Shown here: positions 2,849-64,000 of the stretch, piece by piece
How positions within the stretch are numbered: position 1 is the stretch's first letter
How the letters are laid out: every line of letters starts with the position of its first letter
From: Squalus acanthias
Lineage: Eukaryota
DNA: 64,000 nt
Direction of reading: 5' to 3'
Assembly: GCA_030390025.1 (NCBI GenBank)
Contig: CM059432.1
Span: 46,130,001-46,194,000, forward strand
The notes under the pieces: model-generated
Database searches by the model: none
What the model was told of the DNA's origin: nothing
Seen by the model: only the letters and a program-made list of their open reading frames with translations
Program-made: the position numbers and the translations under genes

Positions 2849-4995
2849 TGTGAAGGAATAAGCCATATTCAGAAAAATACAACATTCTATGAAATAATTC
2901 TGGCCTTATTGTAACATGACAAACTGGGCTTGAAAATTTAAAAACCTAACAATGGAGAAGCTGTAAACAGCATACAGGCTATTGAGATAACATAAGTTGT
3001 TGACACTGAATCAATAACCTTATTGAAACAGGAGGTTGGAAGCTCCTGAAGTCTGAAGCTTTGGAAAGAACACAATGGTACACCCTGTTAAGGTGTCCTA
3101 AATTACACTTTGGAAAGGAACACAGAAAACACAGGAGACACGATTCTGTGTTGCAAACAGCTGAGGTAACTAAGAAGACAATGGTGCACCCGGTTGAGGT
3201 GTTTTTAATTTACACGTCGTAAAAAGACACAAACAGAAGACCTTGGTAAGAATGACATCAAATAGATGCATCTGCTGTCACACCGTTTTCATGATAAGCT
3301 TCGAACACCTAAAAGTAGAGACATGGGGGGAGAAATTCAGTATCGCCCCATTTGGGGCGCAATTATCGGCCGGGCGCAAAGATTAGCGCCTGGCGCTAAT
3401 TATCGCCACCGACTGCAAACTTGACTTTTATCGCCCCTGGAGGTGATTGGAGCGCTAAATCAGGCGCTTCACACCTGTCTTAAGGCGCAAAGGCAGAGGA
3501 GCGAGGCGCTACCTCAGAGCGCTGGCAAAGCTCATGTGATGTCAGTCAGCAATGGAACACACACACAATGGCACGGGACAGTTCTTAAAGGGGATGGTTG
3601 ATCTTGCTTTCCTTCCACATCCTGCTCATTGCAGCCTTGAATCTCGGCATGGAGAGACCTGCACATCAAATCTGCTGTAAAGAAAAATGGAGAGTACCAG
3701 GGAAAGAGCTCAGAGTGCAGCCCCCACAGTCTCTTCTAAATCGATACAAGGAATGGCAGATTTAAAATGAACCTGCAAAGTGCTGCTCAGTACCCAAAAC
3801 TCCTTCACACAGCGTTGAATCTCTCCAGAAGTCTCTCTCTCTCTCTCCCTCTCTCTCAGAATGCGTGGTTCAAAAATGGCACCAACAATAAAAGGCAGGA
3901 AGCGGTCGCCTTTAAATAGCGCTCCCCCAGTCCCTTCATGACTGCAAAACGCTCCCCTCAACCTGTCGTTGCTAGCGTCAGGCGGTAAGGCAGGGGGCGC
4001 CACTCAATATCCGCTCCAGGGCGATACCGGGGCGTTGCGCACTCGACTGACGTCACGATCTGCCAGCGCAGGAGATCGTGGTGGTAGTGTTTAGCGCTGC
4101 CGCAAAATGTCTAGTTAAGTTCGCGAGCGGCGCAAACATCGCAGCGCCTGGGTGCCAGCTGATTTGCGCCCCATTAGCGCCCTCTTAAGGCGCTAACGGG
4201 AGGCGCAACCAACTGAACTTTTCCCCCATGATTCTTAATGCTACCAGCTAAACTGACTGTAAGAATAGCAGGGGTCAGCAGAAAAATGACTAGAGATAAT
4301 TAACTTACATCAGCAGAAAACCTCAAAGGACATGCCACTGAAAAAGGATATAAATATTGAACTTTTAAATGGGATGATAGATTCGCTGTAAAGGGGCACA
4401 GCGATTCTCAGGCTTCAGAGGCAAGCTCTGTAAGTCTACAACTTTTTGTACCTTGGGGATCAAAGGTATCAAAGGTATTTGATTTTGTTGGATATCCTGG
4501 AATAAGACTAAGAAATGTAAAAATGTAACGAAGTTAAGAGTTGAGAATAAGGATCTCTGATAATAGAATTGTAAGATTTTTGTTTTTGGAACTATTAATG
4601 TTGCAATTGAATCACCAACTGTAAATTACATGTCGGTTCTTTAATAAATCTATATATTTTTAGAATTGTCTCACATAATACTTCTGTATCAAACTCGCAA
4701 ACTCAATCTCTGTACGCTCTTTGGTGAGGAGTTGCGGAATTCTGGGAGAGTTTTCCAGACCCTCATAATATCCGGAACGTTACAGTCTAGCTAAACTTAT
4801 TAAAAGTGCTATCTGGAGGATGGTAACATCTTCAGGTTGTTCCTTTCCTTTAGGGAGAGATAGTCTGGACCTTTAGACCTAATTAAGCGTCTTTAGGATT
4901 CGGCTACCTCAAACTTTAGTTGAAAGTGAACGTCTGGGGAATACGCCTGATCCGGGGTGGCCCTAAAGGGGCTAGGACTGGTAATTATCCCTTCA
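2849..4995 (+). mobile_element. Solo LTR (~1.24 kb without the MITE inside it), from an ERV or Gypsy-type element
   Basis: TGTGAAGG...CCTTCA ends; 4-bp TSD GCTG/GTTG; TATAAA near 4349; AATAAA near 4643; imperfect direct repeats at about 3070-3240; no coding sequence. Confidence 0.7.
3326..4227 (+). mobile_element. Harbinger-type MITE, family A (~900 bp)
   Basis: TIR GGGGGAGAAATTCAG...CTGAACTTTTCCCCC; TSD ATG; close match to 25829-26721 and to 30663-31553 (reverse). Confidence 0.88.
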
Positions 4996-12980: not shown

Positions 12981-15185
12981 GGGCTAAAAATTCAGGGGCT
13001 TAACGCCACCTGTTACCGGCAAAAAATGGCAAAAAGAAGGCTAGCTGGTGGCGGGTCCGCTGCGTCCTACATTTTCCTACATTTTCCTAGGCCCGGTAGC
13101 GCTGCCATTAAGAAGTATCACCCTGCAAAGAAAAATGCCGGAGTGCACGCCGACTTAACGTCACCACAGCAAAATTTGAGCCTAGCGTTGAGTTCAGCGG
13201 TGGTCCTAAGCACAGCAGGTAAACCCAGCAGGCAAGGAGACTCACAAAGGTGCTGTCAGCACCTCTTAAAGGGACACACACATCTTTCAGTTAAGTTTGC
13301 AATTAAGCTTTTGGACTGGATGTTTTTGATTTTACTGAAGTAGTGGCTTGGTGCAATACATGTTAAAAGTTTTTTAAGTGAGTAGGGAGTGCTGCTGGAT
13401 GCTTGCAAGGCCTCGGATGGTAAAATAACAGAAAATGCTGCAAATACTCAGCACGTCAGGCAACATCCATGGAGAGAGAAACAGAGTTCATGTCTCAGGT
13501 CAAGATGCTGCCTGACCTGTTGAATATTTCCAGCATTTTATGCTGTCATTTCAGAGTTACAGCACCCGCTCACAGAGGGAAGAGGAAGATGCAGAAGAGG
13601 TAGAAGCAGAAGAGGAGAAAGCAGAAGAGGAGGAAGCAGAAGGAAGGATGCAACCCAGACAGTCTCTTTCTAGTCGGGATATCTGGGATGGAATCATCCA
13701 CCTGCGGTCTCAGTGACCACAACCCCAATTCCCTTTTCAACATTAGCCCCACACCTTACCTTCCCTCTGTTACTGACCATCACAGTGTCCTCTTGGCCAC
13801 GATGCTGAAATAAAAGCCACCAGAAAGCAAACTTTCCAATCCAACTTTATACATCTATCCATCCAATATGAAATCAAGAAATCAACTCATCACCCTTATG
13901 CATTCTCTTAGTGACTGTCTTGTGTGTGCCTTTGCCTATCCTAGTGATGTCACACAGTGCTACCCAAGTGGCTGCAGCATGGCTGGAGGAAGGCTGCTGA
14001 ATTTCAGTGGGGGACATTAAAAATGGCCTTGCTGGTCGACCTTGAGGAGCTGGTGGCTGGGAGTGTGAAATCAAGTAACGGTGTTTCTTCTTCTTTTTCT
14101 TCTTCACTCTTCTCTCCCTCTTCTTGGCCAACCACTGGCTGGGTAGGCTTCATTTCTTGGGTGTGTGAAATGAGGAAGGCGCAAGGGTGGAGTTGTGGTG
14201 AGGGGAGGGCGGAAAAGCAAGAGGTGCATGCCAGAAGGAGGATAACGTATGAGGATACCAGCATCTTGTATCCTTTCTGCCCTGTTGCTGGCCAAGGGCT
14301 TAGCCATGCCCCTGCCAAGAATAGCCTGCACCGTCTCCTCCAAGGGGTGAGGTGAGGTGAGGCTAGGAATGGGAAATCTGCCTCGTGATTGGTACAGATT
14401 GTTAGTAGGTGAGTAATTGACGGGGGGAGTCAAGCTTTGAGCAGTGTGTGAGGATAGTGTTTCAGTTAGTAGGAGACGACTTTTGAAGATGCATTCACTG
14501 GCCTTGACCAGTGGTCTGAAGTCATGAAGCATCATTGGGCACTGGAGCCAGATGGTGGGGTGACACTGCTGGCAGTGACAGCCTTGGTGATGTGGTCCCA
14601 CATCCTTCTTTCTGGAAGGCCTCCTGGCCCCTTGTGGGTAGAGGACCTCTCTTGCAGTGTTGACCTCCTGCACAAAGCTAGAGTGCTGCATGCAAGACCC
14701 TGGGTGCCCCTTCCCTGGCTTGCTGAGCCATTTGTGTTAGCGCTGAAGCACTTTTCCCATTTTTTGAGGTTCGGAAGGGAATTCAGCTTTCAGTGCTGAA
14801 GACTCCCTTTTGGGACTTCTTTTTCTAATGTTAATGTTTGTTAAAAAGGCAGTAAGGGCTGAAAACTTCAATTTTTATTAGCTCTGAACGCATTGCCCCT
14901 TTAATTCATAGACCTTTTAATGACCCACAATTCCTTGTGAACTCCACAGCCTTGCTCCCAGAGGCTGTTAGAAGCTGAAACGCTGCTTCAGGATGGGAAC
15001 ATCGACTTCCATGCCTGCGCTAACGCCACCAGGAGGGCATTACATAGTAAGTTAGCACTGGGCTAAAAATCTTTGGCCCCCAGCGCAAATTTTTCTCGAG
15101 TAGCGCTGCGTCCATTTTCAACGGCCGTTAACCCGAGTTGCCAATGACACCAGCAACTCTTGTGGCGGCCACGAATTTTTCCCCC
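12981..15185. mobile_element. Internally deleted Harbinger element with a Myb-like remnant on the minus strand
   Basis: TIR GGGCTAAAAATTC...GAATTTTTCCCCC; TSD TAA; VQEVNTAREVLYPQGARRPS...WLQC remnant at 14500-14690. Confidence 0.75.
13420..13570. repeat. Palindromic Penelope-derived short element (head-to-head arms; ribozyme core mostly lost)
   Basis: AAAATGCTGCAAATACTCAGCACGTCAGGCAACATC ... GATGCTGCCTGACCTGTTGAATATTTCCAGCATTTT; same family as 21550-21682 and 55167-55469. Confidence 0.65.
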
Positions 15186-20012: not shown

Positions 20013-21549
20013 AAGTTTGTTACCTTGTTGCTGAGTGTGTTCATAAAATTTCCCTGCCGCTGAAATCTGCTGCACGTTTCACCTCCGATGCTTCAAGCCT
20101 TTAAGAACATAAGAAATAGGAGCAGGAATAGGCCACTTGGCCCCTTGAGCCTGCTCCACCATTCAATAAGATCATGGCTGATCTTGGGCTCAAAGCCACT
20201 TCCCTGCCCGCTCCCCATAACCCTTCACTCCCTTATCTTGCAAAAGGTATTGCTGCAGGCCTATGATGAGTGGCAGATTCCCCACCCTCCTAAATGGCGA
20301 AGTGCCCATAAGCAGTGTGATAAGCGATGGCAACAACTTCCATTTATAGAGCCCCTTTAATGTAGTAAAATGTCTCAAGGCAACTCGCTGTTGTATTTAA
20401 ATGAGGCTTTACCACCAAAATCATTCAAGCCTCCTACTTAACATCATCGGCTGGGTAGAGCAGGTGGACCACCTACCGATCTGTGCTCCATACCGAAATC
20501 GATCTAGATTTCCCTGTACGTGAAGTAAAACTGGTATACATTCCAATTTTGCATTTTTTAAGCACCAGGTCATATTTTGATAGAAATTGTGTAACGTGGC
20601 AATAATGTTGTGTCATAGAAATAAATCAGATTAATTCATAGGCAATGATCTTTATAAAAATGATATAGGACTCTCATTTATACCCCTCAGACGATCTTTT
20701 ATTTACTGACTTAGATGTTTAAAACTAGTCTTATGCCATAAAGAGAAAATTTAGTGGCAATTTGCAGTATTAAATAAAATATACATGACAGCATATATGA
20801 GACTCATTTTATCGCACAGTAGCATTTGTTCATGGAATTGTGTTGAAATTGTGGATAGGCCAGAACTAAGCCTGTTTGTGTGATGTTGAATGGTTACGAG
20901 AGGTTATTTCCCCTATATCATTGCCCAGTGATTTGGAAATATCATCAGTAGTGAGCAGTTTGCATATCCCTTGGAGCAACCCACGCTCACTGTCTTTGAA
21001 TACTCCAAGAAATACTGCTAGCTGCAAAATGTCAACTGAATCAATTCTTCAACAAATACAGTAAAGCCGTCACTTATCAGCCAAATATGGCCAGAATGCT
21101 TTTATCATGTTGCGTACATCCAGAACAGAATTGCTAGAATCATTTACTATTATATTGAAAAAGGAAAGAAAATGCATTTTGAAGAGGAAACATTTGTCCC
21201 AACACAGCTTCACTAGGTGATAACAGTGACAGTCCCATGTACGGGCCTAAACTACATTTATGGCTGAATGTAGTAGTGTGTATATCTAACCTGAGGCAAT
21301 GTGATAACACAAGAGTGAAGCAGATTAGATTTTCTAACTGAGTTATAAAAAGGTCGTGCATTTTCATTCCATACAGCTACTAAGGCCAAGTATTTCATGT
21401 GATAACTGCTGCAAAGTCTGGCAAACAATACAGCACAGATTCCATAATGTGTCCAGAACACAATGGTTTGTTTTTTAGATTTAAAGTGGTAACACTTGAG
21501 TCACCATCATGTTAGTTTTTAAAGTAGAAGACCATGGGAAAGGACTAAT

Positions 21550-21682
21550 ACAAAAGCAAAATACTGCACATGTTGGAAATCCAAAATAAAAATAGAAACT
21601 GCTGGAAATATTCAGCAGATCAGGCAGCATCTGTGGAGAGATAAACAGAGTAAACATTTCAGGTCGGTGACCTTTTGTCAGA
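21550..21682 (-). repeat. Penelope-derived short element with a degenerate hammerhead core
   Basis: Minus strand CTGACAA-A-AGGTC-ACC-GACCT-GAAA-TGTT...; the changes are compatible with CpG decay of CTGACGA and GAAACGT. Confidence 0.65.
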
Positions 21683-22205
21683 TCTATCTACATATGCTTA
21701 TTCTGTGTTTTTGCACTGCTTCCATTACAGCACTTGATCACTCAGTCCGCCATAAGTGAACATTCGTAAATGGTACAAGCACATCATTAACATTTTCTGT
21801 ACTGTAATGCTTCAATGAGTGTTGGGGAATGATAGAACTGAATATGCTACTATTACTCATAGTAGGCCCATGGTGCAGAAATTGGAATAGAAGGGAGTGC
21901 TGCTGAAACATAGAAACATAGAAACATAGAAGATAGGAGCAGGAGTAGGCCATTCGGCCCCTCGAGCCTGCTCCGCAATTCAATGCGATCATGGCTGATC
22001 ATCCAAATTCAGTACCCTGTCCCTGCTTTCTCCCTATATTCCTTGGTCCCTTTAGCTTTAAGAAATATATCTGACTCCTTCTTGAATATATTTAATGAAT
22101 TGGCCTCAACTGCCTTGGGTGGTAGAGAATTCCACAGGTTCACCACTCTCTGGGTGAAGAAATTCCTCCTCATCTCAGTCCTAAATGGCTTACCCCTTAT
22201 CCTTA

Positions 22206-22417
22206 TGTGAGAAGTCGCACAACACCAGGTTATAGTCCAACAGGTTTATTTGAAATCACAAGCTTTCGGAGCGCTGCTCCTTCGTCAGGTGAAGTCACGA
22301 AGGAGCAGCGCTCCAAAAGCTTGTGATTTCAAATAAAACTGTTGGACTATAACCTGGTGTTGTGCGACTTCTCACATTTGTCCACCCCAGTCCAACACCG
22401 GCATTTCCACATCATGG
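22206..22417. mobile_element. Penelope-like inverted terminal-repeat (hairpin) insertion
   Basis: ~80-bp inverted arms (22206-22285 / 22297-22377); matches 44150-44276; TSD CCCTTATCCTTA/CCCTTATTCTTA. Confidence 0.85.
22256..22292 (-). ncRNA. Minimal type I hammerhead ribozyme core
   Basis: UCAC-CUGACGA-A-GGAGC-AGC-GCUCC-GAAA-G-CUU-GUGA: stem I UCAC/GUGA, stem II GGAGC/GCUCC, palindromic stem III AAGCUU. Confidence 0.75.
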
Positions 22418-22755: not shown

Positions 22756-25700
22756 TGGCAGGGGGTTGGGAACCTGAGCAGGGAGACAGAGGAAAGGGAA
22801 ACAAGGATAAAAGCAAAAGATAGGAAGGAGAAAAACAAAAGTGGCAGTCAGAGAAAACAACGGTTTAAATCAAACATGGCCACAGTAAATACAAATTCTA
22901 ATAGGTCTAAGAGCGTTAAAAAAACAAGCCTGAAGGCTTTGTGTCTTAATGCAAGGAGCATTCGGAACAAGGTGGATGAATTAGCTGCGCAAATAGAGGT
23001 AAACAAATATGATTTGATTGGGATTACCGAAACATGGCTCCAGGGTGGCCAAGGCTGGGAACTCAACATCCAGGGGTACTCATTATTCAGGAAAGATAGG
23101 CAAAAAGGAAAGGGAGGTGGGGTAGCATTGCTGGTTAAAGAGGCGATTAACACAATTGAAAGGAAGGATATTAGCTCTGATGATGTGGAATCTGTATGGG
23201 TTGAACTGAGAAATAACAAGGGGCAGAAAACGTTAGTGGGAGTGATATATAGGTCTCGAAACAGTAATGCGGAGGTTGGGGATGGCATTAAAAGGGAAAT
23301 TAGAGAAGCATGCAATAAGGGCACAGCAGTCATCATGGGTGACTTTAATCTACATATAGATTGGGCTAACCAAATTAGTAACAATACTATGGAGGAGGAA
23401 TTCCTGGAGTGTTTACGGGATGGTTTCCTGGACCAATATGTCGAGGAACCAACCAGAGATCAGGCCATCTTAGACTGGGTATTATGCAATGAGAAAGGAT
23501 TAATTAGCAATCTTGTTGTGCGAGGCCCCTTGGGTTGGAGCGATCATAATATGATAGAATTCTTCATTAGGATGGAGAGTGAAGTAGTTGAATCAGAGAC
23601 TAGGGTCCTGAATTTAAATAAAGGTAACTTTGATGGTATGAGGTGCGAGTTGGGTAGGATTGATTGGGGAATGTCACTCAAAGGGTTGGCGGTGGATAGG
23701 CAATGGCAAACATTCAAAGACCGCATGGACGAACTACAGAATTTGTTCATCCCAGTTTGGCATAAGAATAAAACAAAAAGGGTGACTCAACCGTGGCTAA
23801 CGAGGGAAATTAGGGATAGCATAAGATCCAAGGAGAGGGCATATAAAATGGCCAGAAAAAGCAGTAACCCTGAGGATTGGGAGCAGTTTAAGATTCAACA
23901 AAGGAGGACAAAGGGATTAATTAAGAAGGGGAAAATAGAATACGAGAGTAAGCTTGCAGGGAACATAAAAACTGACTGTAAAAGCTTTTATAGATATGTG
24001 AAGAGAAAAAGATTAGTGAAATCAAGCATAGGTCCCTTGCAGTCAGAATCAGGGGAATTTATAATGGGGAACAAAGAAATGTCAGGCCAATTAAATACAT
24101 ATTTTGGTTCTGTCTTCACAAAGGAGGACACAAATAACCTCCCAGAGATGTTGGGGAACATAGGGTCTGATGAAAGGGAGGAACTGAAAGAAATCAGTAT
24201 TCGTAGGGAAATGGTGTTAGGGAAATTGAAGGGATTGAAGGCCGATAAATCCCCAGGGCCTGACAATCTACATCCTAGGGTACTTAAGGAAGTGGCCCTA
24301 GAAATAGTAGATGCATTGCTGATCATCTTCCAACATTCGATGGAATCTGGAACAGTACCCATGGATTGGAGGGTAGCTAATGTTACCCCACTATTACAAA
24401 AGGGTGGTAGAGAGAAAACGGGGAATTACAGACCGGTAAGCCTGACATCGGTAGTGGGGAAAATGCTAGAGTCCATTATAAAAGATGTAATAGCTGAGCA
24501 CTTCGAAAACAGTGACAGGATCGGACAAAGTCAACATGGATTTACAAAAGGTAAATCATGCTTGACTAATCTACTGGAATATTTTGAGGATGTAACTGGT
24601 AAAATAGATAATGGAGAACCAGTGGATGTGGTGTATTTGGACTTTAAGAAGGCTTTTGATAAGGTCCCGCATAAGAGATTAGCGTGTAAAGTTAAGGCAC
24701 ATGGGATTGGGGGCAAGGTATTGACTTGGATAGAGAACTGGTTGGCAGACAGAAAGCAAAGAGTTGGAATAAACGGGTCTTTTTCCGAGTGGCAAGCAGT
24801 GACTAGTGCGGTACCGCAGGGATCGGTCCTTGGACCCCAGCTATTCACAATATATATTAATGATCTAGACAAGGGAACTAGATGTAATATCTACAAGTTT
24901 GCAGACGACACAAAATTGGGTGGGCGTGTGTGCTGCGAGAAGGATGCTGAGAAACTCCAGGATGATTTGGACAGGTTGGGTGATTGGGCAGAAGCATGGC
25001 AGATGCAATATAACATGGATAAATGCGAGGTTATCCACTTTGGTGTCAAAAACAGAAAGGCAGATTATTATCTGAATGGCAATAGATTGGGAGAAGGGGA
25101 AGTGCAACGAGACCTGGGTGTCCTTGTGCAGCAGTCGCTGAAGGTAAGCATGCAGGTGCAGCAGGTGGTTAAGAAGGCAAATGGTATGTTGGCCTTCATA
25201 GCGAGAGGGTTTGAGTACAGGAACAAGGGTGTCCTGCTGCAGTTGTACAGGGCCTTGGTGAGACCACACCTTGAGTACTGTGTGCAGTTTTGGTCGCCTT
25301 ATCTGAGGAAGGATGTTCTTGCCATGGAAGGAGTTCAGCGAAGATTCACAAGGCTGATACCTGGGGTGGCAGGAATGACGTATGAAGAGAGATTGGGTCG
25401 ATTGGGCTTAAACTCGCTGGAGTTTAGAAGAATGAGAGGGGATCTCATTGAAACTTATAAAATTCTGACAGGACAGGACAAACTAGATGCAGGAAAATTG
25501 TTCCCGATGGTCGGGGAGTCCAGAACCAGGGGTCACAGTCTAAGGATAAGGGGTAAGCCATTTAGGACAGAAATGAGGAGGAATTTCTTCACCCAGAGAG
25601 TGGTGAACCTGTGGAATTCTCTGCCACAGAAGGCAGTAGAGGCCAATTCATTAAATAGATTCAAGAAGGAGTTGGATATATTTCTTAAGGCTAAAGGGAT

Positions 25701-25828
25701 CAAGGGATATGGGGAGAAAGCAGGGACAGGGTACTGAATTTGGATGATCAACCATGATCGAATTGAATGGCGGAGCAGGCTAGAGGGGCCGAATGGCCTA
25801 CTCCTGCTCCTATCTTCTATGATTCTAT
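22756..25828 (+). mobile_element. Young CR1 LINE, 5'-truncated just upstream of ORF2, with complete 3' UTR
   Basis: Frame open from 22756 to the stop at 25737; 3' UTR GGAGCAGGC...GCCTACTCCTGCTCC and TTCTATGATTCTAT tail. Confidence 0.95.
22876..25737 (+). CDS. CR1 ORF2 polyprotein: APE-type endonuclease + reverse transcriptase (953 aa, uninterrupted)
   Basis: Endonuclease motifs LNARSI, GITETWL, GGGVALL, IMGDFN, ILDWV, SDHN; RT motifs [38 protein letters not shown]-terminal LVRPHLEY. Confidence 0.95.
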   Translation: MATVNTNSNRSKSVKKTSLKALCLNARSIRNKVDELAAQIEVNKYDLIGITETWLQGGQGWELNIQGYSLFRKDRQKGKGGGVALLVKEAINTIERKDISSDDVESVWVELRNNKGQKTLVGVIYRSRNSNAEVGDGIKREIREACNKGTAVIMGDFNLHIDWANQISNNTMEEEFLECLRDGFLDQYVEEPTRDQAILDWVLCNEKGLISNLVVRGPLGWSDHNMIEFFIRMESEVVESETRVLNLNKGNFDGMRCELGRIDWGMSLKGLAVDRQWQTFKDRMDELQNLFIPVWHKNKTKRVTQPWLTREIRDSIRSKERAYKMARKSSNPEDWEQFKIQQRRTKGLIKKGKIEYESKLAGNIKTDCKSFYRYVKRKRLVKSSIGPLQSESGEFIMGNKEMSGQLNTYFGSVFTKEDTNNLPEMLGNIGSDEREELKEISIRREMVLGKLKGLKADKSPGPDNLHPRVLKEVALEIVDALLIIFQHSMESGTVPMDWRVANVTPLLQKGGREKTGNYRPVSLTSVVGKMLESIIKDVIAEHFENSDRIGQSQHGFTKGKSCLTNLLEYFEDVTGKIDNGEPVDVVYLDFKKAFDKVPHKRLACKVKAHGIGGKVLTWIENWLADRKQRVGINGSFSEWQAVTSAVPQGSVLGPQLFTIYINDLDKGTRCNIYKFADDTKLGGRVCCEKDAEKLQDDLDRLGDWAEAWQMQYNMDKCEVIHFGVKNRKADYYLNGNRLGEGEVQRDLGVLVQQSLKVSMQVQQVVKKANGMLAFIARGFEYRNKGVLLQLYRALVRPHLEYCVQFWSPYLRKDVLAMEGVQRRFTRLIPGVAGMTYEERLGRLGLNSLEFRRMRGDLIETYKILTGQDKLDAGKLFPMVGESRTRGHSLRIRGKPFRTEMRRNFFTQRVVNLWNSLPQKAVEANSLNRFKKELDIFLKAKGIKGYGEKAGTGY

Positions 25829-26721
25829 GGGGGAGAAATTCAGTATCGCCCCATTTGGGGCGCAATTATCGGCCGGGCGCAAAGATTAGCGCCTGGCGCT
25901 AATTATCGCCACCGACTGCAAACTTGACTTTTATCGCCCCTGGAGGTGATTGCAGCGCTATATCAGGCGCTTCACACCTGTCTTAAGGCGCAAAGGCCGA
26001 GGAGCGAGGCACTACCTCAGAGCGCTGGCGAAGCTCATGTAATGTCAGTCAGCAATGGAACACACACACAATGGCACGGGCCAGTTCTTAAAGGGGATGG
26101 TTAATCTTGCTTTCCATCCACATCCTGCTCATTGCAGCCTTGAATCTCGGCCTGGAGAGACCTGCACATCAAATGTGCTGGAAAGAACAATGGAGAGCAC
26201 CAGGCAAAGAGCTCAGAGTGCAGCCCCCACAGTCTCTGCTAAATCGATACAAGGAATGGCAAATCAAAATGAACCTGCAAAGTGCTGCTCAGTACCCAAA
26301 ACTCCTTCACACAACGTTGAATCTCTCCAAAAGTCTCTCCCTCTCTCTCTCCAGAATGCATAGTTCAAAAATGGCACCAACAATAAAAGGCAGGAAGCGG
26401 TCACCTTTAAATAGCGCTCCCCTTTCCCTTCATGACTGCATAACGCTCCCCTCAACCTGTCGTTGCTAGCGTCAGGCGGTAAGGCAGGGGGCACCACTCA
26501 ATATCCGCTCCAGGGCGATACCGGGGCGTTGCGCACTCGTCTGATGTCACGATCTGCCGGCGCAGGAGATCGTGGCGGTAGTGTTTAGCGCCACCGCAAA
26601 ATGTCTAGTTAATTTCGCGAGCGGCGCAAACTTCGCCGCGCCTGGGCGCTGGATGCTTTGCGCCCCATTAGCGCCCTCTTAAGGCGCTAACGGGAGGCGC
26701 AACCAACTGAATTTTTCCCCC
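25829..26721 (+). mobile_element. Harbinger-type MITE, family A, inserted in the CR1 microsatellite tail
   Basis: TIR GGGGGAGAAATTCAG/CTGAATTTTTCCCCC; TSD TAT. Confidence 0.9.
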
Positions 26722-43239: not shown

Positions 43240-44276
43240 TGATGACATGTTGAAGGCTGATGACGATGAACACCTCGCTAAGGCCATCCCCACGCCTCCA
43301 CTACTCGCCTTCAAACAGCCGCCTAACCTCAAACAGACCATCGTTCTCAGCAAATTATCCAGCTTTCAGGAGAACAGCGACCACGACACCACACAACCCT
43401 GCCACGGCAACCTCTGCAAGACATGCCAGATCATCAACACAGATACCATCATCACACATGAGGACACTACCCACCAGGTACATGGTACATACTCATGTGA
43501 CTCGGCCAACCTTGTGTACCTCATACGTTGCAGGAAAGGATGCCCCAGAGCATGGTACATCGGCGAGACCATGCAGACACTGCGACAACGTATGAACGGA
43601 CACCGCACAACAATCGCCAGGCAGGAGTGTTCCCTCCCAGTCGGGGAACACTTCAGCAGTCAAGGACATTCAGCCTCCGATCTTCGGGTAAGCGTTCTCC
43701 AAGGCGGCCTTCGAGACACACGACAACGCAAAATCGTCGAGCAGAAACTGATAGCCAAGTACCGCACCCATGAGGACGGCCTCACACAGGATCTTGGGTT
43801 CATGTCACGCTACATGTAACCCCACCTGACGTAGAGTCATCCAGACACGAGTCCTCGTTGGCTTGTTCTCTCTACACAGATGCGGCCGGACCTGCTGTGA
43901 TTTCCAGCAAAAAACATTTTTGTTTTCCATACGGACCCCAGCATCTGCCACATTTGACCCCTTGTGACCCCACCTCATTGTCTTTGATGTAATGTTTTCC
44001 TGACTGACCTGTTTGGACACCATCCACACCTTTGATTGCCGTGATTATCTCTCTGCCGAGATATGATAAAGGGTAGTTAGAAAGATTAACTGTAATCATC
44101 TGGCAGTGTTCTCTGACTATATATGCTGTGACTATATGCATCTCTTCACTTCACCTGATGAAGGAGCAGCGCTCCGAAAGCTTGTGATTTCAAATAAAGC
44201 TGTTGGACTATAACCTGGTGTTGTGCGACTTCTCACATTTGTCCACCCCAGTCCAACACCGGCATCTCCACATCAT
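43240..44276 (+). mobile_element. Penelope-like element 3' part: GIY-YIG endonuclease remnant plus hammerhead-bearing terminal repeat
   Basis: ORF 43226-43819: AFKQPPNLKQ, C...CKTC linker, SANLVYLIRC...WYIGET...RMNGHR, VGEHF...GH, EQKLI...GL; its 3' end matches 22297-22415. Confidence 0.9.
44151..44187 (+). ncRNA. Minimal type I hammerhead ribozyme core
   Basis: UCAC-CUGAUGA-A-GGAGC-AGC-GCUCC-GAAA-G-CUU-GUGA, sense to the GIY-YIG ORF. Confidence 0.78.
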
Positions 44277-53616: not shown

Positions 53617-54581
53617 TCATAGAAGATAGGAGCAGGAGTAGGCCATTCGGCCCCTCTAGCCTGCTCCGCCATTCAATGCGATCATGGCTGATCATCCAAA
53701 TTCAGTACCCTGTCCGTGCTTTCTCCCCATATCCCTTGATCCTTTTAGCCTTAAGAAATATATCCAACTCCTTCTTGAATCTATTTAATGAATTGGCCTC
53801 TCTTGCCTTCTGTGGCAGAGAATTCCACAGGTTCACCACTCTCTGGGTGAAGAAATTCCTCCTCATTTCTGTCCTAAATGGATTACCCCTTATCCTTAGA
53901 CTGTAACCCCTGGTTCTGGACTCCCCGACCATCAGGAACATCCTTCCTGCATCTAGTTTGTCCTGTCCTGTCAGAATTTTATAAGTTTCAATGAGATCCC
54001 CTCTCATTCTTCTAAACTCCAGCGAGTATAAGCCCAATCGACCCAATCTCTCTTCATACATCATTCCTGCCATCCCAGGTATCAGCCTTGTGAATCTTCG
54101 CTGAACTCCTTCCATGGCAAGAACATCCTTCCTCAGATAAGGCGACCAAAACTGCACACAGTACACAAGGTGTGGTATCACCAAGGCCCTGTACAACTGC
54201 AGCAAGACATCCTTGTTCCTGTACTCAAACCCTCTCGCTATGAAGGCCAACATACCATTTGCCTTCTTAACCGCCTGCTGCACCTGCATGCTTACCTTCA
54301 GCGACTGGTGCACAAGGACACCCAGGTCTCGTTGCACTTCCCCTTCTCCCAATCTATTGCCTTTCAGATAATAATCTGCCTTTCTGTTTTTGACACCAAA
54401 GTGGATAACCTCGCATTTATCCACGTTATATTGCATCTGCCACGCTTCTGCCCAATCACCCAACCTGTCCAAATCATCCTGGAGTTTCTCGGCATCCTCC
54501 TCGCAGCACACACGCCCACCCAGTTTTGTGTCGTCTGCAAACTTGGAGATATTACATCTAGTTCCCTTGTCTAGATCATTA
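53617..54581 (-). mobile_element. Young CR1 3' fragment with an open 269-aa frame; same subfamily as 22756-25828
   Basis: Shares GQDKLDAG and NRFKKELDIFLKAK with the 953-aa ORF. Confidence 0.92.
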
Positions 54582-55166
54582 AGTGTCCTGTTACCACTTC
54601 CTTAATAATGGATTCCAGCATTTTCCCGATGACTGATGTCAAGCTAACTGGCCTGTAGTTCTCTGTTTTCTCTCTCCCTCCTTTCTTGAATAGTGGGGTT
54701 ATATTTTTTACCTTCCAATCCGCTGGAACTGTTCTAGAATCTAGGGAATTTTGGAAGATCACAAACAATGCATCCACTATCTCTGCAGTCACCTCTTTTA
54801 GAACCCTAGGATGTAGGCCATCAGGTCCAGGAGATTTATTAGCTTTTAGTTCCTTAGTTTCTCATGTACTTTTTCTCTACTAATCTTAATTACTTAAAGT
54901 TCCTCAATCTCATTAGCCCTTAGTTCCCCACTATTTTTGGTATGTTTTTAGTGTCTTCTGCTGTGAAGACAGAGACAAAGGCTGGAATTTTCCAGGGCCC
55001 GTGTGGGCACGATCGGAGGAGGGTCGGGTGGGGAAGTTGAAATTTCTTGCAGCAGGTCGGGAACCCGCCGTCATCCCGCCCCCATGCGCCTTTCCCTCAG
55101 GCGCGTCTGTCAACACAGCAGCGACCCGACCAGCAGGGGTGGGCGACCCAATTAAAGGATTATTAG

Positions 55167-55469
55167 AAATAACAACAGAAAACGCTGGAAAAACTCAGCA
55201 GGCCAGGCAGCATCCGTGGAGAGAGAAAGAGAGTTGACGTTTCAGATCGATGACCTTTCATCAGAACTGGGAAGAGCCGGAAATCAAATAGATTTAAGGC
55301 CAGGGTAAAGCTGGGAAAAGGGGGAGGGGATAAAGGAACAAAGGAGGAGATGAAGAGACATTAAGAGACATTAAGAGATATGCAAGGCTAGAGGTGATGT
55401 TAATGTGACAGATTAAGGCTGAATGAAGTGTGAAATCCACTGGCAGAATGAAGGACAGCTGCCAGCTTC
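55167..55469 (-). mobile_element. 303-bp non-coding Penelope-derived insertion with a hammerhead, inside a truncated MITE-like element (about 54980-55868)
   Basis: Perfect 12-bp TSD AAGGATTATTAG (55155-55166, 55470-55481); GATGCTGCCTGGCCTGCTGAG motif. Confidence 0.82.
55232..55268 (-). ncRNA. Minimal type I hammerhead ribozyme core with a GUC cleavage triplet
   Basis: AGUU-CUGAUGA-A-AGGUC-AUC-GAUCU-GAAA-C-GUC-AACU: stem I AGUU/AACU, stem II AGGUC/GAUCU, palindromic ACGU stem III. Confidence 0.8.
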
Positions 55470-56039
55470 AAGGATTATTAGCTTGTTCTCAGACCCTTAA
55501 GAGTCTTTTTAACCTCACCTTTGCAATTTCACTGGATGCCCACGGGACACACGCTGCTTGGGGGCCATGTCTGTCAACCTGAGGTGGGAGTTGAGTGACC
55601 ATTGATCCAGCTGATTAGTTGACAGCATCAAATGTAATATAAAAGCTCCCACCTGATAGCTGATCACTTTCTTCAGACAGAAGCTGTTGCTGACTTTCCA
55701 GCAAAGTCTCTATTAGGTGTCACCTCATTGGAAGAACCTCTCTCACCATTGATAGATTGCCGCAGTACTGCAGGCCTTCCTCCCCTTATTAAAGGGGATG
55801 TGCCTAGCGCAGTGCAACCCAGGGCCCAGATGGGACACTAGGGATCGGAGTGCCGGCAAAAGAGCACAAGTTCATTGAGAATTTTGGAATATTTCTTTTA
55901 ATATTTGCCACTGTTTATATACCGTAATACCTTTTAATCTAATTTTCCAATCTACCTTAGCTAACTCACCCCTCATACTTATGTAATTGGCTTTATTATA
56001 TTTAAGACTAGTTTCGAACTTAGGTATGTCACTCAATGT

Positions 56040-62218: not shown

Positions 62219-64000
62219 ACATAGAAACATAGAAGATAGGAGCAGGAGTAGGCCATTCGGCCCCTCGAGCCTGCTCCGCCATTCGATGAGATCATGGTTG
62301 ATCATCCAAACTCAGTACCCTGTCCCTGCCTTCTCCCCATATCCCTTGATACCTTTAGCCTTAAGAAATATATCTAACTCCTCCTTGAATATATTTACTG
62401 ACTTGGCCTCAACTGCCTTCTGTGGTAGAGAATTTCACAGGTTCACCACTCTCTGGGTGAAGAAATTCCTCCTCATCTCTGTCCTAAATGGCTTACCCCT
62501 TATCGTTAAACTGTGACCTCTTGTTCTGGACTCCCCCCGCCATCGGGAACATCCTTCCTGCATCCAGTCTGTCTAGCCCTGTTAGAATTTTATAAGTTTC
62601 AATGAGATCTCCTCTCATTCTTCTAAACTCCAGAGAGTATAAGCCCAATTGACCCAATCTCTCCTTGTACGTCATTCCTGCCATCCCAGGTATCAGTCTG
62701 ATGAATCTTCACTGCACATCCTCCATGGCAAGAACATCCTTCCTCAGATAAGGCGACCAAAACTGCACACAATACTCAAGGTGTGGTATCACCAAGGCCC
62801 TGTACAGCTGCAGCAAGACATCCTTGTTCCTGTACTCAAACCCTCTCGCTACGAAGGCCAACATACCATTTGCCTTCTTAACTGCCTGCTGTACCTGCAT
62901 GCTTACCTTCAGCGACTGGTGCACAAGGACACCCAGGCCTCGTTGCACTTCCCCTTCACCCAATCTATTGCCGTTCAGATAATAATCTGCCTTTCTGTTT
63001 TTGCCACCAAAGTGGATAACCCCGCATTTATCCACATTAAACTGCAACTGCCATGCATCTGCCCAATCACCCAATCTGTCCAAATCATACTGGAGTTTCT
63101 CGGCATCCTCCTCGCAGCACACACGCCCACCCAGCTTTGTGTCATCTGCAAACTTGGAGATATTACATCTAGTTCCATCATCTAGATCATTAATATATAT
63201 AATGAATAGCTGGGGTCCTAGGACCGATCCCTGCGGAACCCCACTAGTCACTGCCTGCCACTCGGAAAAAGACCCGTTTATTCCAACTCTTTGCTTCCTG
63301 TCTGCCAACCAGTTCTCTATCCAAGTCAGTACCTTGCCCCCAATCCCATGTGCCTTAATTTTGCACGCTAATCTCTTATGCGGGACCTTATTGAAAGCCT
63401 TCTGAAAGTCCAAATACACCACATCCACTGGTTCTCCCTTATCTATTCTATCAGTTACATCCTCAAAAAATTCCAGTATATTAGTCAAGCACGATTTACC
63501 TTTTGTAAATCCATGTTGACTTTGTCCAATCCTGTCACTGTTTTCCAAGTGCTCTGCTATTACATCTTTTATAATGGACTCTAGCATTTTCCCCATAACC
63601 GATGTCAGGCTTACCGGTCTATAATTCCCCGTTTTTTCTTTACCACCTTTTTTAAACAGTGGGGTAACATTAGCTACCCTCCAATCCATGGGAACTGTTC
63701 CAGAGTCTATAGAATTTTGGAAGATGACCAGCAATGCATCTATTATTTCTAGGGCCACTTCCTTAAGTACCCTAGGATGTAGATTATCAGGCCCTGGGGA
63801 TTTATCGGCCTTTAATGCCATCAATTTCCCTACCACCATTTCCCTACAAATACTGATTTCATTCAGTTCCTCCCTCTCATTAGACCCTATGTTCCCCGAC
63901 ATCTCTGGGAGGTTATTTGTGTTCTCCTTTGTGAAGACAGAGCCAAAGTATGTATTTAATTGGCCTGCCATTTCTTTGTTTCCCATTATAAATTCCCCTG
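62219..64000 (-). mobile_element. Young CR1 (RT region and 3' UTR), running off the window
   Basis: 425-aa ORF 62709-63986 very similar to 27011-27898 and to the 953-aa ORF; stop at a CGA>TGA site; TTTCTATG tail. Confidence 0.93.

Follow-up and report, generated by a model that had tools for sequence, protein, structure and literature searches.

A 303-bp hammerhead-bearing insertion in Squalus acanthias is a truncated stub of a Neptune-type Penelope-like element

The insertion has a true target-site duplication and matches one end of a longer element

The window analysed here is the whole stretch of 64,000 nucleotides (64 kb), taken from the 3.7-Gb genome of Squalus acanthias; its features are collected in Table 1, and signed positions are counted from the AUG located within the CUGAUGA motif. 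The 12-mer AAGGATTATTAG, which borders the insertion on both sides, has no further occurrence within the window, and all 11 fetched paralogues of the host repeat carry it singly, with both flanks joined, i.e., as empty sites. The 12-bp duplication is thus a true target-site duplication (TSD), and the 303-bp insertion with a perfect 12-bp TSD that had been described in an earlier note on this DNA is confirmed. No short tandem was found at the insertion site.

Table 1. Features of the window (the 64-kb stretch)
Feature	Position	Strand	Remarks
TSD, left copy, 12 bp	55155..55166		single at 11/11 empty paralogous sites
TSD, right copy	55470..55481		4 bases at its start are shared with the element, a microhomology at the 5' junction
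Neptune-type Penelope-like element, 5'-truncated pLTR end	55167..55469	-	spans -208 to +94 relative to the AUG
Distal 208 nt of the element 3' UTR	55262..55469	-	unit positions 2987-3198, 98.6%
Codons 1-31 of the 971-aa parent ORF	55167..55261	-	starts at the AUG inside CUGAUGA
Host repeat receiving the element	54970..55760 (approximate limits)		from paralogue comparison
Minimal type I hammerhead	55232..55268	-	predicted cut between 55236 and 55235
Stem I	55265-55268 paired with 55232-55235	-	AGUU/AACU
Hammerhead core CUGAUGA, then bulged A	55258-55264	-	
Stem II	55244-55256	-	AGGUC/GAUCU; one G.U through a C-to-U change
GAAA	55240-55243	-	helix III is the palindromic ACGU
Older-subfamily stub, -7 to +134, with tail	21544..21685	-	decayed core, with a changed G8 and a broken palindrome in helix III
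Older-subfamily fold-back stub, two opposite arms	13424..13569		CUGANGA half absent, GAAA changed
5'-truncated copy of a second Penelope family	43285-44276	+	GIY-YIG end, CX4CxxC linker, stop at ~43819

The insert maps onto unit positions 2987-3198 and 1-96 of a 3,198-bp Penelope-like element with 98.6-99% identity, and together with the TSD this bears out the earlier view of it as retroposed and Penelope-linked. It differs from the full-length copy L106 by 3 substitutions, the alignment to L106 extending to 55473, that is, over 4 nt common to the target at the 5' junction; at the other side it stops, without a tail, at +94, which is the shorter of the two 3' ends seen in the family. Translation of 55261-55166 gives MKGHRSETST..., which agrees with the 971-aa parent protein in 31 of 32 residues. 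The statement that the insertion has no ORF is not confirmed, as the start of the parent ORF is contained in it.

When the insert was used as a query, there were 1,413 candidates, and the 40 that were scored all matched, at 90-100% identity. Thirty loci were fetched from this search, the window copy among them (L008 and L010 being the same insertion). Among the 29 other best-matching loci, 27 extend at least 145 nt past the base corresponding to 55469, towards or into the GIY-YIG/RT ORF. One of the remaining two extends 15 nt past it; the other, L022, breaks at the very base of the window copy and has a duplication of its own, the locus set that gave it having come from a search which favoured copies with such ends.

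The parent is a full-length element with an intact 971-aa ORF

A query with the 5' part of the ORF retrieved copies with a direct repeat of the same end upstream, and these pLTRs include the ORF start. The parent, a Penelope-like element of 3,198 bp, has an intact ORF of 971 aa (RT and GIY-YIG) and is present in partial and full tandems; its complete coding copies invariably bear the miniature hammerhead. In one array three complete units follow each other at a spacing of 3,198-3,199 bp. Twelve intact 971-aa ORFs, at 10 insertion sites, were found within 12 fetched stretches that had been selected for a direct upstream pLTR. A tandem array at G000:C4 ~15,715,400-15,726,000 (L106, L107) has four hammerheads and three intact 971-aa ORFs. 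Its units are 99.9% identical, and it is likely a recently active source locus.

The ORF has YIDD, LYIGET and DKG motifs, with GIY-YIG C-terminal of the RT. Pfam detected RVT_1 (E 4.6e-6) and GIY-YIG (E 3.7e-4), both below the curated cut-off, and in the Atlas the parent protein scored 0.98 to RT/GIY-YIG clusters. Between RT and EN lies a CX4CxxC linker (CTRRRCNTC; the Neptune criterion is CX2-5CxxC in this place), and a CCHH motif (CSRC...H...H) is also present, a trait common to Neptune and Nematis. By the definitions in the accessible part of PMC8557442, the DKG, linker and CCHH motifs would place the element with Neptune or Nematis, this being an assignment from motifs and not from a tree.

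The predicted start codon within CUGAUGA reads ACG in 98 of 176 related copies, and an AUG at +48 is conserved. Because of this, the true start of the ORF may be the AUG at +48.

The family is very numerous. A 33-mer taken just 3' of the motif has 19,800 occurrences, compared with 0 for its reversed control, and sequencing-run contigs have 10-100 times more depth across roughly -9..+135, as fits a large number of short stubs; this depth is no measure of expression. A hammerhead-like pattern antisense to the ORF was dropped, as no stem I was seen by eye.

The hammerhead keeps its core, but the window copy is likely silent

All 11 invariant core bases, stems I and II, the palindromic helix III and the bulge after A9 are present in the insertion, and the minus-strand sequence given earlier (stem I, core, bulged A, stem II, GAAA and palindromic ACGU) reads as stated. 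Judged by its sequence, it is the minimal hammerhead of dimer type already known from Penelope elements; the earlier assignment to a minimal type I, dimer-kind hammerhead, in which helix III is palindromic and one additional base follows A9, agrees with the minimal motif in the available part of PMC4209133. The word 'intact', on the other hand, applies to the core and not to stem II, where the window copy has a C-to-U change relative to the family and an A-U instead of the usual G-C at 10.1-11.1.

The bare core pattern is matched once in the window, against 0.26 matches expected, and 24 of 100 shuffles match as well, so that alone it is insignificant. An Rfam scan, which the earlier note had suggested as a check, found no hammerhead family in the window at E<=5. 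With a descriptor that takes the stems into account, 154 motifs were obtained from the 960,860 bases fetched, in loci that had been picked for carrying this repeat; shuffles gave 0.33 on average.

Folding predictions point to a weakened stem II. Over the 303 nt, its predicted pairing is 0.11 for the window allele and ~0.9 for the family allele, while on the isolated 37 nt the window allele reaches 0.88. The C-to-U change is thus predicted to misfold the window hammerhead. The monomer folds are no more stable than those of shuffles (z -0.39 to -0.86), which speaks neither for nor against activity. The catalytic folds are not the predicted minimum. No partner motif of the same family was found near the window copy. 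Because of the predicted weakening of stem II and this lack of a nearby partner, the window hammerhead is likely silent. That of the parent likely cleaves slowly, as a dimer or helped by a protein, and would trim tandem precursors.

Across 176 related copies, position 10.1 is A (an A-U pair) in 149 and G in 26, and the cleavage-site triplet is GUU in 141 versus GUC in 34. Variants at a frequency of at least 10% occur at N7, 10.1, two loop bases and N17. Such positions number 0 of 11 in the core versus 6-7 of 66 downstream, which are too few positions to separate the core from its flanks.

Copy ends are spread at the 5' side and fall into two classes at the 3' side

The ends were mapped for the first 100 listed matches of the 33-mer on contig C1 (loci L117-L201), aligned to the full unit. 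The 3' ends of these consecutive copies fall at +87..+101 (65 copies) and +125..+139 (33 copies), with one at +147 and one read-through, and this two-class pattern is the one-sided 30-40 bp 'tail' of Penelope. In all 12 true inverted pairs, a short 3' end on one arm is combined with a long one on the other. The 5' ends are spread from -3100 to +36, and none lies at -215..-205, where the window copy starts; the window insert is therefore one draw from a truncation spread. The cut site is spanned by 95 of the 100 copies, which implies that the templates were mostly uncleaved or religated.

No short head-to-tail tandems occur among the 100 C1 copies, the only same-strand neighbours being 1.7-3.3 kb apart. 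At L154, L156 and L158, amplification of a truncated 635-bp copy within a host tandem repeat of ~1,678 bp has placed hammerheads in tandem, without this being a retrozyme.

The insertion is best explained as a 5'-truncated retrotransposon end

The explanation that we favour, with a probability of about 95%, is that the insert is the 5'-truncated, hammerhead-bearing end of a full-length Penelope-like retrotransposon, likely written by the element's own EN/RT and now likely inert. Extrapolating from anole biochemistry, as given in the accessible part of PMC11167929, the element protein would bind a tandem or read-through transcript and nick both target strands 12 nt apart, cDNA synthesis would start at an internal site ~94 nt into the ORF, and the RT would copy through the uncleaved hammerhead and stop after 303 nt, the end being joined by microhomology. 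The hammerhead of the window copy would then be a passenger. Two observations count against this explanation, namely L022, with the same 5' break and its own duplication, and the Pfam scores below the cut-offs.

The earlier note assumed a separate non-autonomous self-cleaving RNA family mobilised by a Penelope RT. Spelled out, this reading would require a discrete ~300-bp retrozyme- or SINE-like element that is transcribed, self-cleaved, circularised and mobilised in trans. The length of the insert is within the 150-450 bp range of metazoan retrozyme monomers (PMC7229834, in part), retrozymes have been reported from the sole cartilaginous fish sampled and proposed to be pLTR-derived (bioRxiv 10.64898/2026.07.22.740005, in its available text), and L022 has its 5' break in common with the window copy. 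However, most of the 29 other loci run on into the longer element, 0 of the 100 copies share the 5' end and none forms a short tandem; the insert is thus not a retrozyme. Moreover, same-strand neighbours lie no closer than noted above and the site itself has no tandem, the motif is minimal rather than canonical, it is single and has a weakened stem II (0.11 vs 0.9 for the family allele), and the sequence is 99% parent pLTR, ORF codons included. Neither the 30 loci nor the 100 C1 copies yielded a discrete non-coding unit with fixed ends apart from the autonomous element. The spread of 5' ends largely refutes the idea of a separate ribozyme family, and we consider it highly improbable. Extremely improbable, too, is a solo pLTR, for which the two direct repeats of an originally full-length insertion would have recombined. 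Solo pLTRs have been described (PMC3846280, in part), and a partial tandem whose upstream copy started at -208 could collapse in this way with the duplication kept, but this takes two steps versus one for direct truncation, the window copy is young (3 changes in 303), and in the family short copies with duplications dominate and the truncation spread is smooth.

We conclude that the insertion is a real, recent and dead stub of a Neptune-type Penelope-like element, an ordinary one and no new self-cutting RNA. In itself it matters little, being one among tens of thousands of dead stubs. The family, in turn, is a young and abundant vertebrate Neptune-type element with many intact copies, whose ends can be counted genome-wide, and it is therefore good material for studying the in vivo role of the Penelope hammerhead.

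Copy starts accumulate at the 5' edge of the hammerhead

Among the first 100 copies, ends are not in excess at the cut site but pile up along the 5' edge of the hammerhead motif. Thirty of the 100 C1 copies start at -10..+7, which gives 2.1 starts per 100 nt at risk, versus 0.28 at +8..+41 and 0.10 at -79..-11; the nominal p of 9e-15 refers to mixed subfamilies with non-independent pair arms, and a cluster at -81 lies outside the bins. This latter cluster reflects subfamily divergence. Among solo copies with a duplication of at least 7 nt, 14 of 37 start at -10..+5, and a similar start cluster, partly limited by the reference used, was found in a second Penelope family. In a noisy, alignment-free duplication search, starts at -13..+7 were obtained for 10 of 80 anchor, 6 of 27 old-subfamily, 1 of 19 incidental and 0 of 7 GUC-type copies; the mapping of the 100 C1 copies places three GUC-type copies in that zone. 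The alignment-free check backs the pile-up in part only.

The idea that template ends arise by cleavage in vivo is not supported, a single copy out of 100 having its start at +23..+29. Another cause considered for the pile-up was a 3' splice acceptor at -6/-5 (pyrimidine tract, CAG); an intron ending at helix I is reported for D. virilis in the accessible part of PMC4209133. We provisionally set this possibility aside: in the solo stubs read, no upstream exon lies between the duplication and the start, and the AG is missing in the second family.

The pile-up hints at run-off from an uncleaved transcript. In a tentative scenario, which we find possible but would not bet on, the transcript would start at the first base of stem I (near -7, at an initiator-like CCAGTT), and the RT primed at the ORF-start sites would run off the uncleaved RNA after 100-140 nt, so that nearly a third of insertions would become hammerhead-only stubs. 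With both strands primed, one per start site, the run-off cDNAs would anneal and give fold-back stubs. The CCAGTT at -9..-4 fits an initiator consensus. If true, such run-off would explain the solitary minimal hammerheads that swamp animal genomes, and it would mean that the ribozyme does not define template ends in vivo. We found no description of the 5'-edge pile-up in the literature covered, most subscription papers, supplements and Repbase lying outside the search.

A second Penelope family keeps the hammerhead fold with different stems

Three relatives of the insertion had been named in the window. They are indeed homologous, but none has an intact core, and the one at 43827-43962 is part of the 3' UTR of another Penelope family, whose protein is 34% identical to the first. 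This copy (43285-44276) ends at the long (tail) 3' end and has its own intact minimal hammerhead at 44155-44183, with different stems. After its stop codon, at 43821-43960, lies a decayed hammerhead stub of the first-family type, in which stem II is still paired and the core is lost, while the hammerhead of the host element itself is intact. The decayed piece is also present in five other second-family loci (L004, L076, L080, L082 and L100). If it is a captured stub, its position beside an intact hammerhead makes it a natural control for selection on the core.

Nineteen of the 154 descriptor motifs belong to the second family, with stems UCAC/GUGA or UUAC/GUAA and GGAGC/GCUCC, and with the palindrome AGCU. 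Since the core is the same in both families although the stems of the second, which are paired, differ entirely, comparison of the two sequences argues for selection on the hammerhead fold between the families.

A second-family fold-back stub was seen at 22205-22415 (arms 22205-22295 and 22299-22415, one with the short and one with the long end); its hammerhead, at 22260-22288 on the minus strand, is intact, and the stub interrupts a LINE fragment. By self-comparison, LINE fragments of several ages are dense in the window (e.g., 24050-25829, 53617-54582 and 62220-64000). In L040, the flank upstream of the Penelope copy has long frames that by eye resemble genes of gag and env type, as in an LTR retroelement or provirus.

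Comparison with known systems

Sources cited in this section were available in part, and the comparison is limited to those parts. Metazoan retrozymes are short tandems with a motif per unit and circular RNA (PMC7229834; bioRxiv 10.64898/2026.07.22.740005). The insertion shares with non-LTR retrozymes its short length, the type I hammerhead and the Penelope link, but the window copy is a lone truncated piece of a coding element, without a tandem.

Much closer is the minimal hammerhead (min-HHR) of metazoan Penelope pLTRs, for which no activity of monomers and low activity of multimers was reported (Cervera and de la Pena 2014, PMC4209133); most single genomic min-HHR motifs were attributed there to truncated elements. 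The motif described here is likewise of type I, without loop 3, with a palindromic 15.2-16.2, an extra base between 9 and 10.1, a short helix I and a location in the pLTR. It differs in its helix II of 5 bp and in the A-U pair at 10.1-11.1, where G-C was called highly conserved; older subfamilies of the shark element have G.U or G-C at this place.

With the Neptune-clade EN+ Penelope-like elements (PMC8557442), the parent has in common a single ORF with RT followed by a C-terminal GIY-YIG, DKG, the CX4CxxC linker and CCHH, as well as partial tandems, inverted truncated copies, a one-sided tail of 30-40 bp and a pLTR hammerhead. Target-site duplications at the copies are a further likeness to EN+ elements, whereas the sites read here gave no sign of microsatellite targeting. 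Microhomology at junctions has been described for Penelope (PMC3846280), and the 5' junction of the window copy shares 4 nt.

For the Poseidon element PAc of the green anole, two internal RT starts early in the ORF give the tail, and unprocessed RNA is the template in vitro (Frangieh et al. 2024, PMC11167929); the 95 of 100 shark copies that span the cut site agree with the latter finding. There too the ORF start overlaps the hammerhead, and the two 3'-end classes seen here are a parallel. However, PAc belongs to another clade, its RT starts lie at 111-118 nt as opposed to ~+92 and +129 here, and its AUG follows the core, while in the shark element the AUG is within the core, the position that so often reads ACG.
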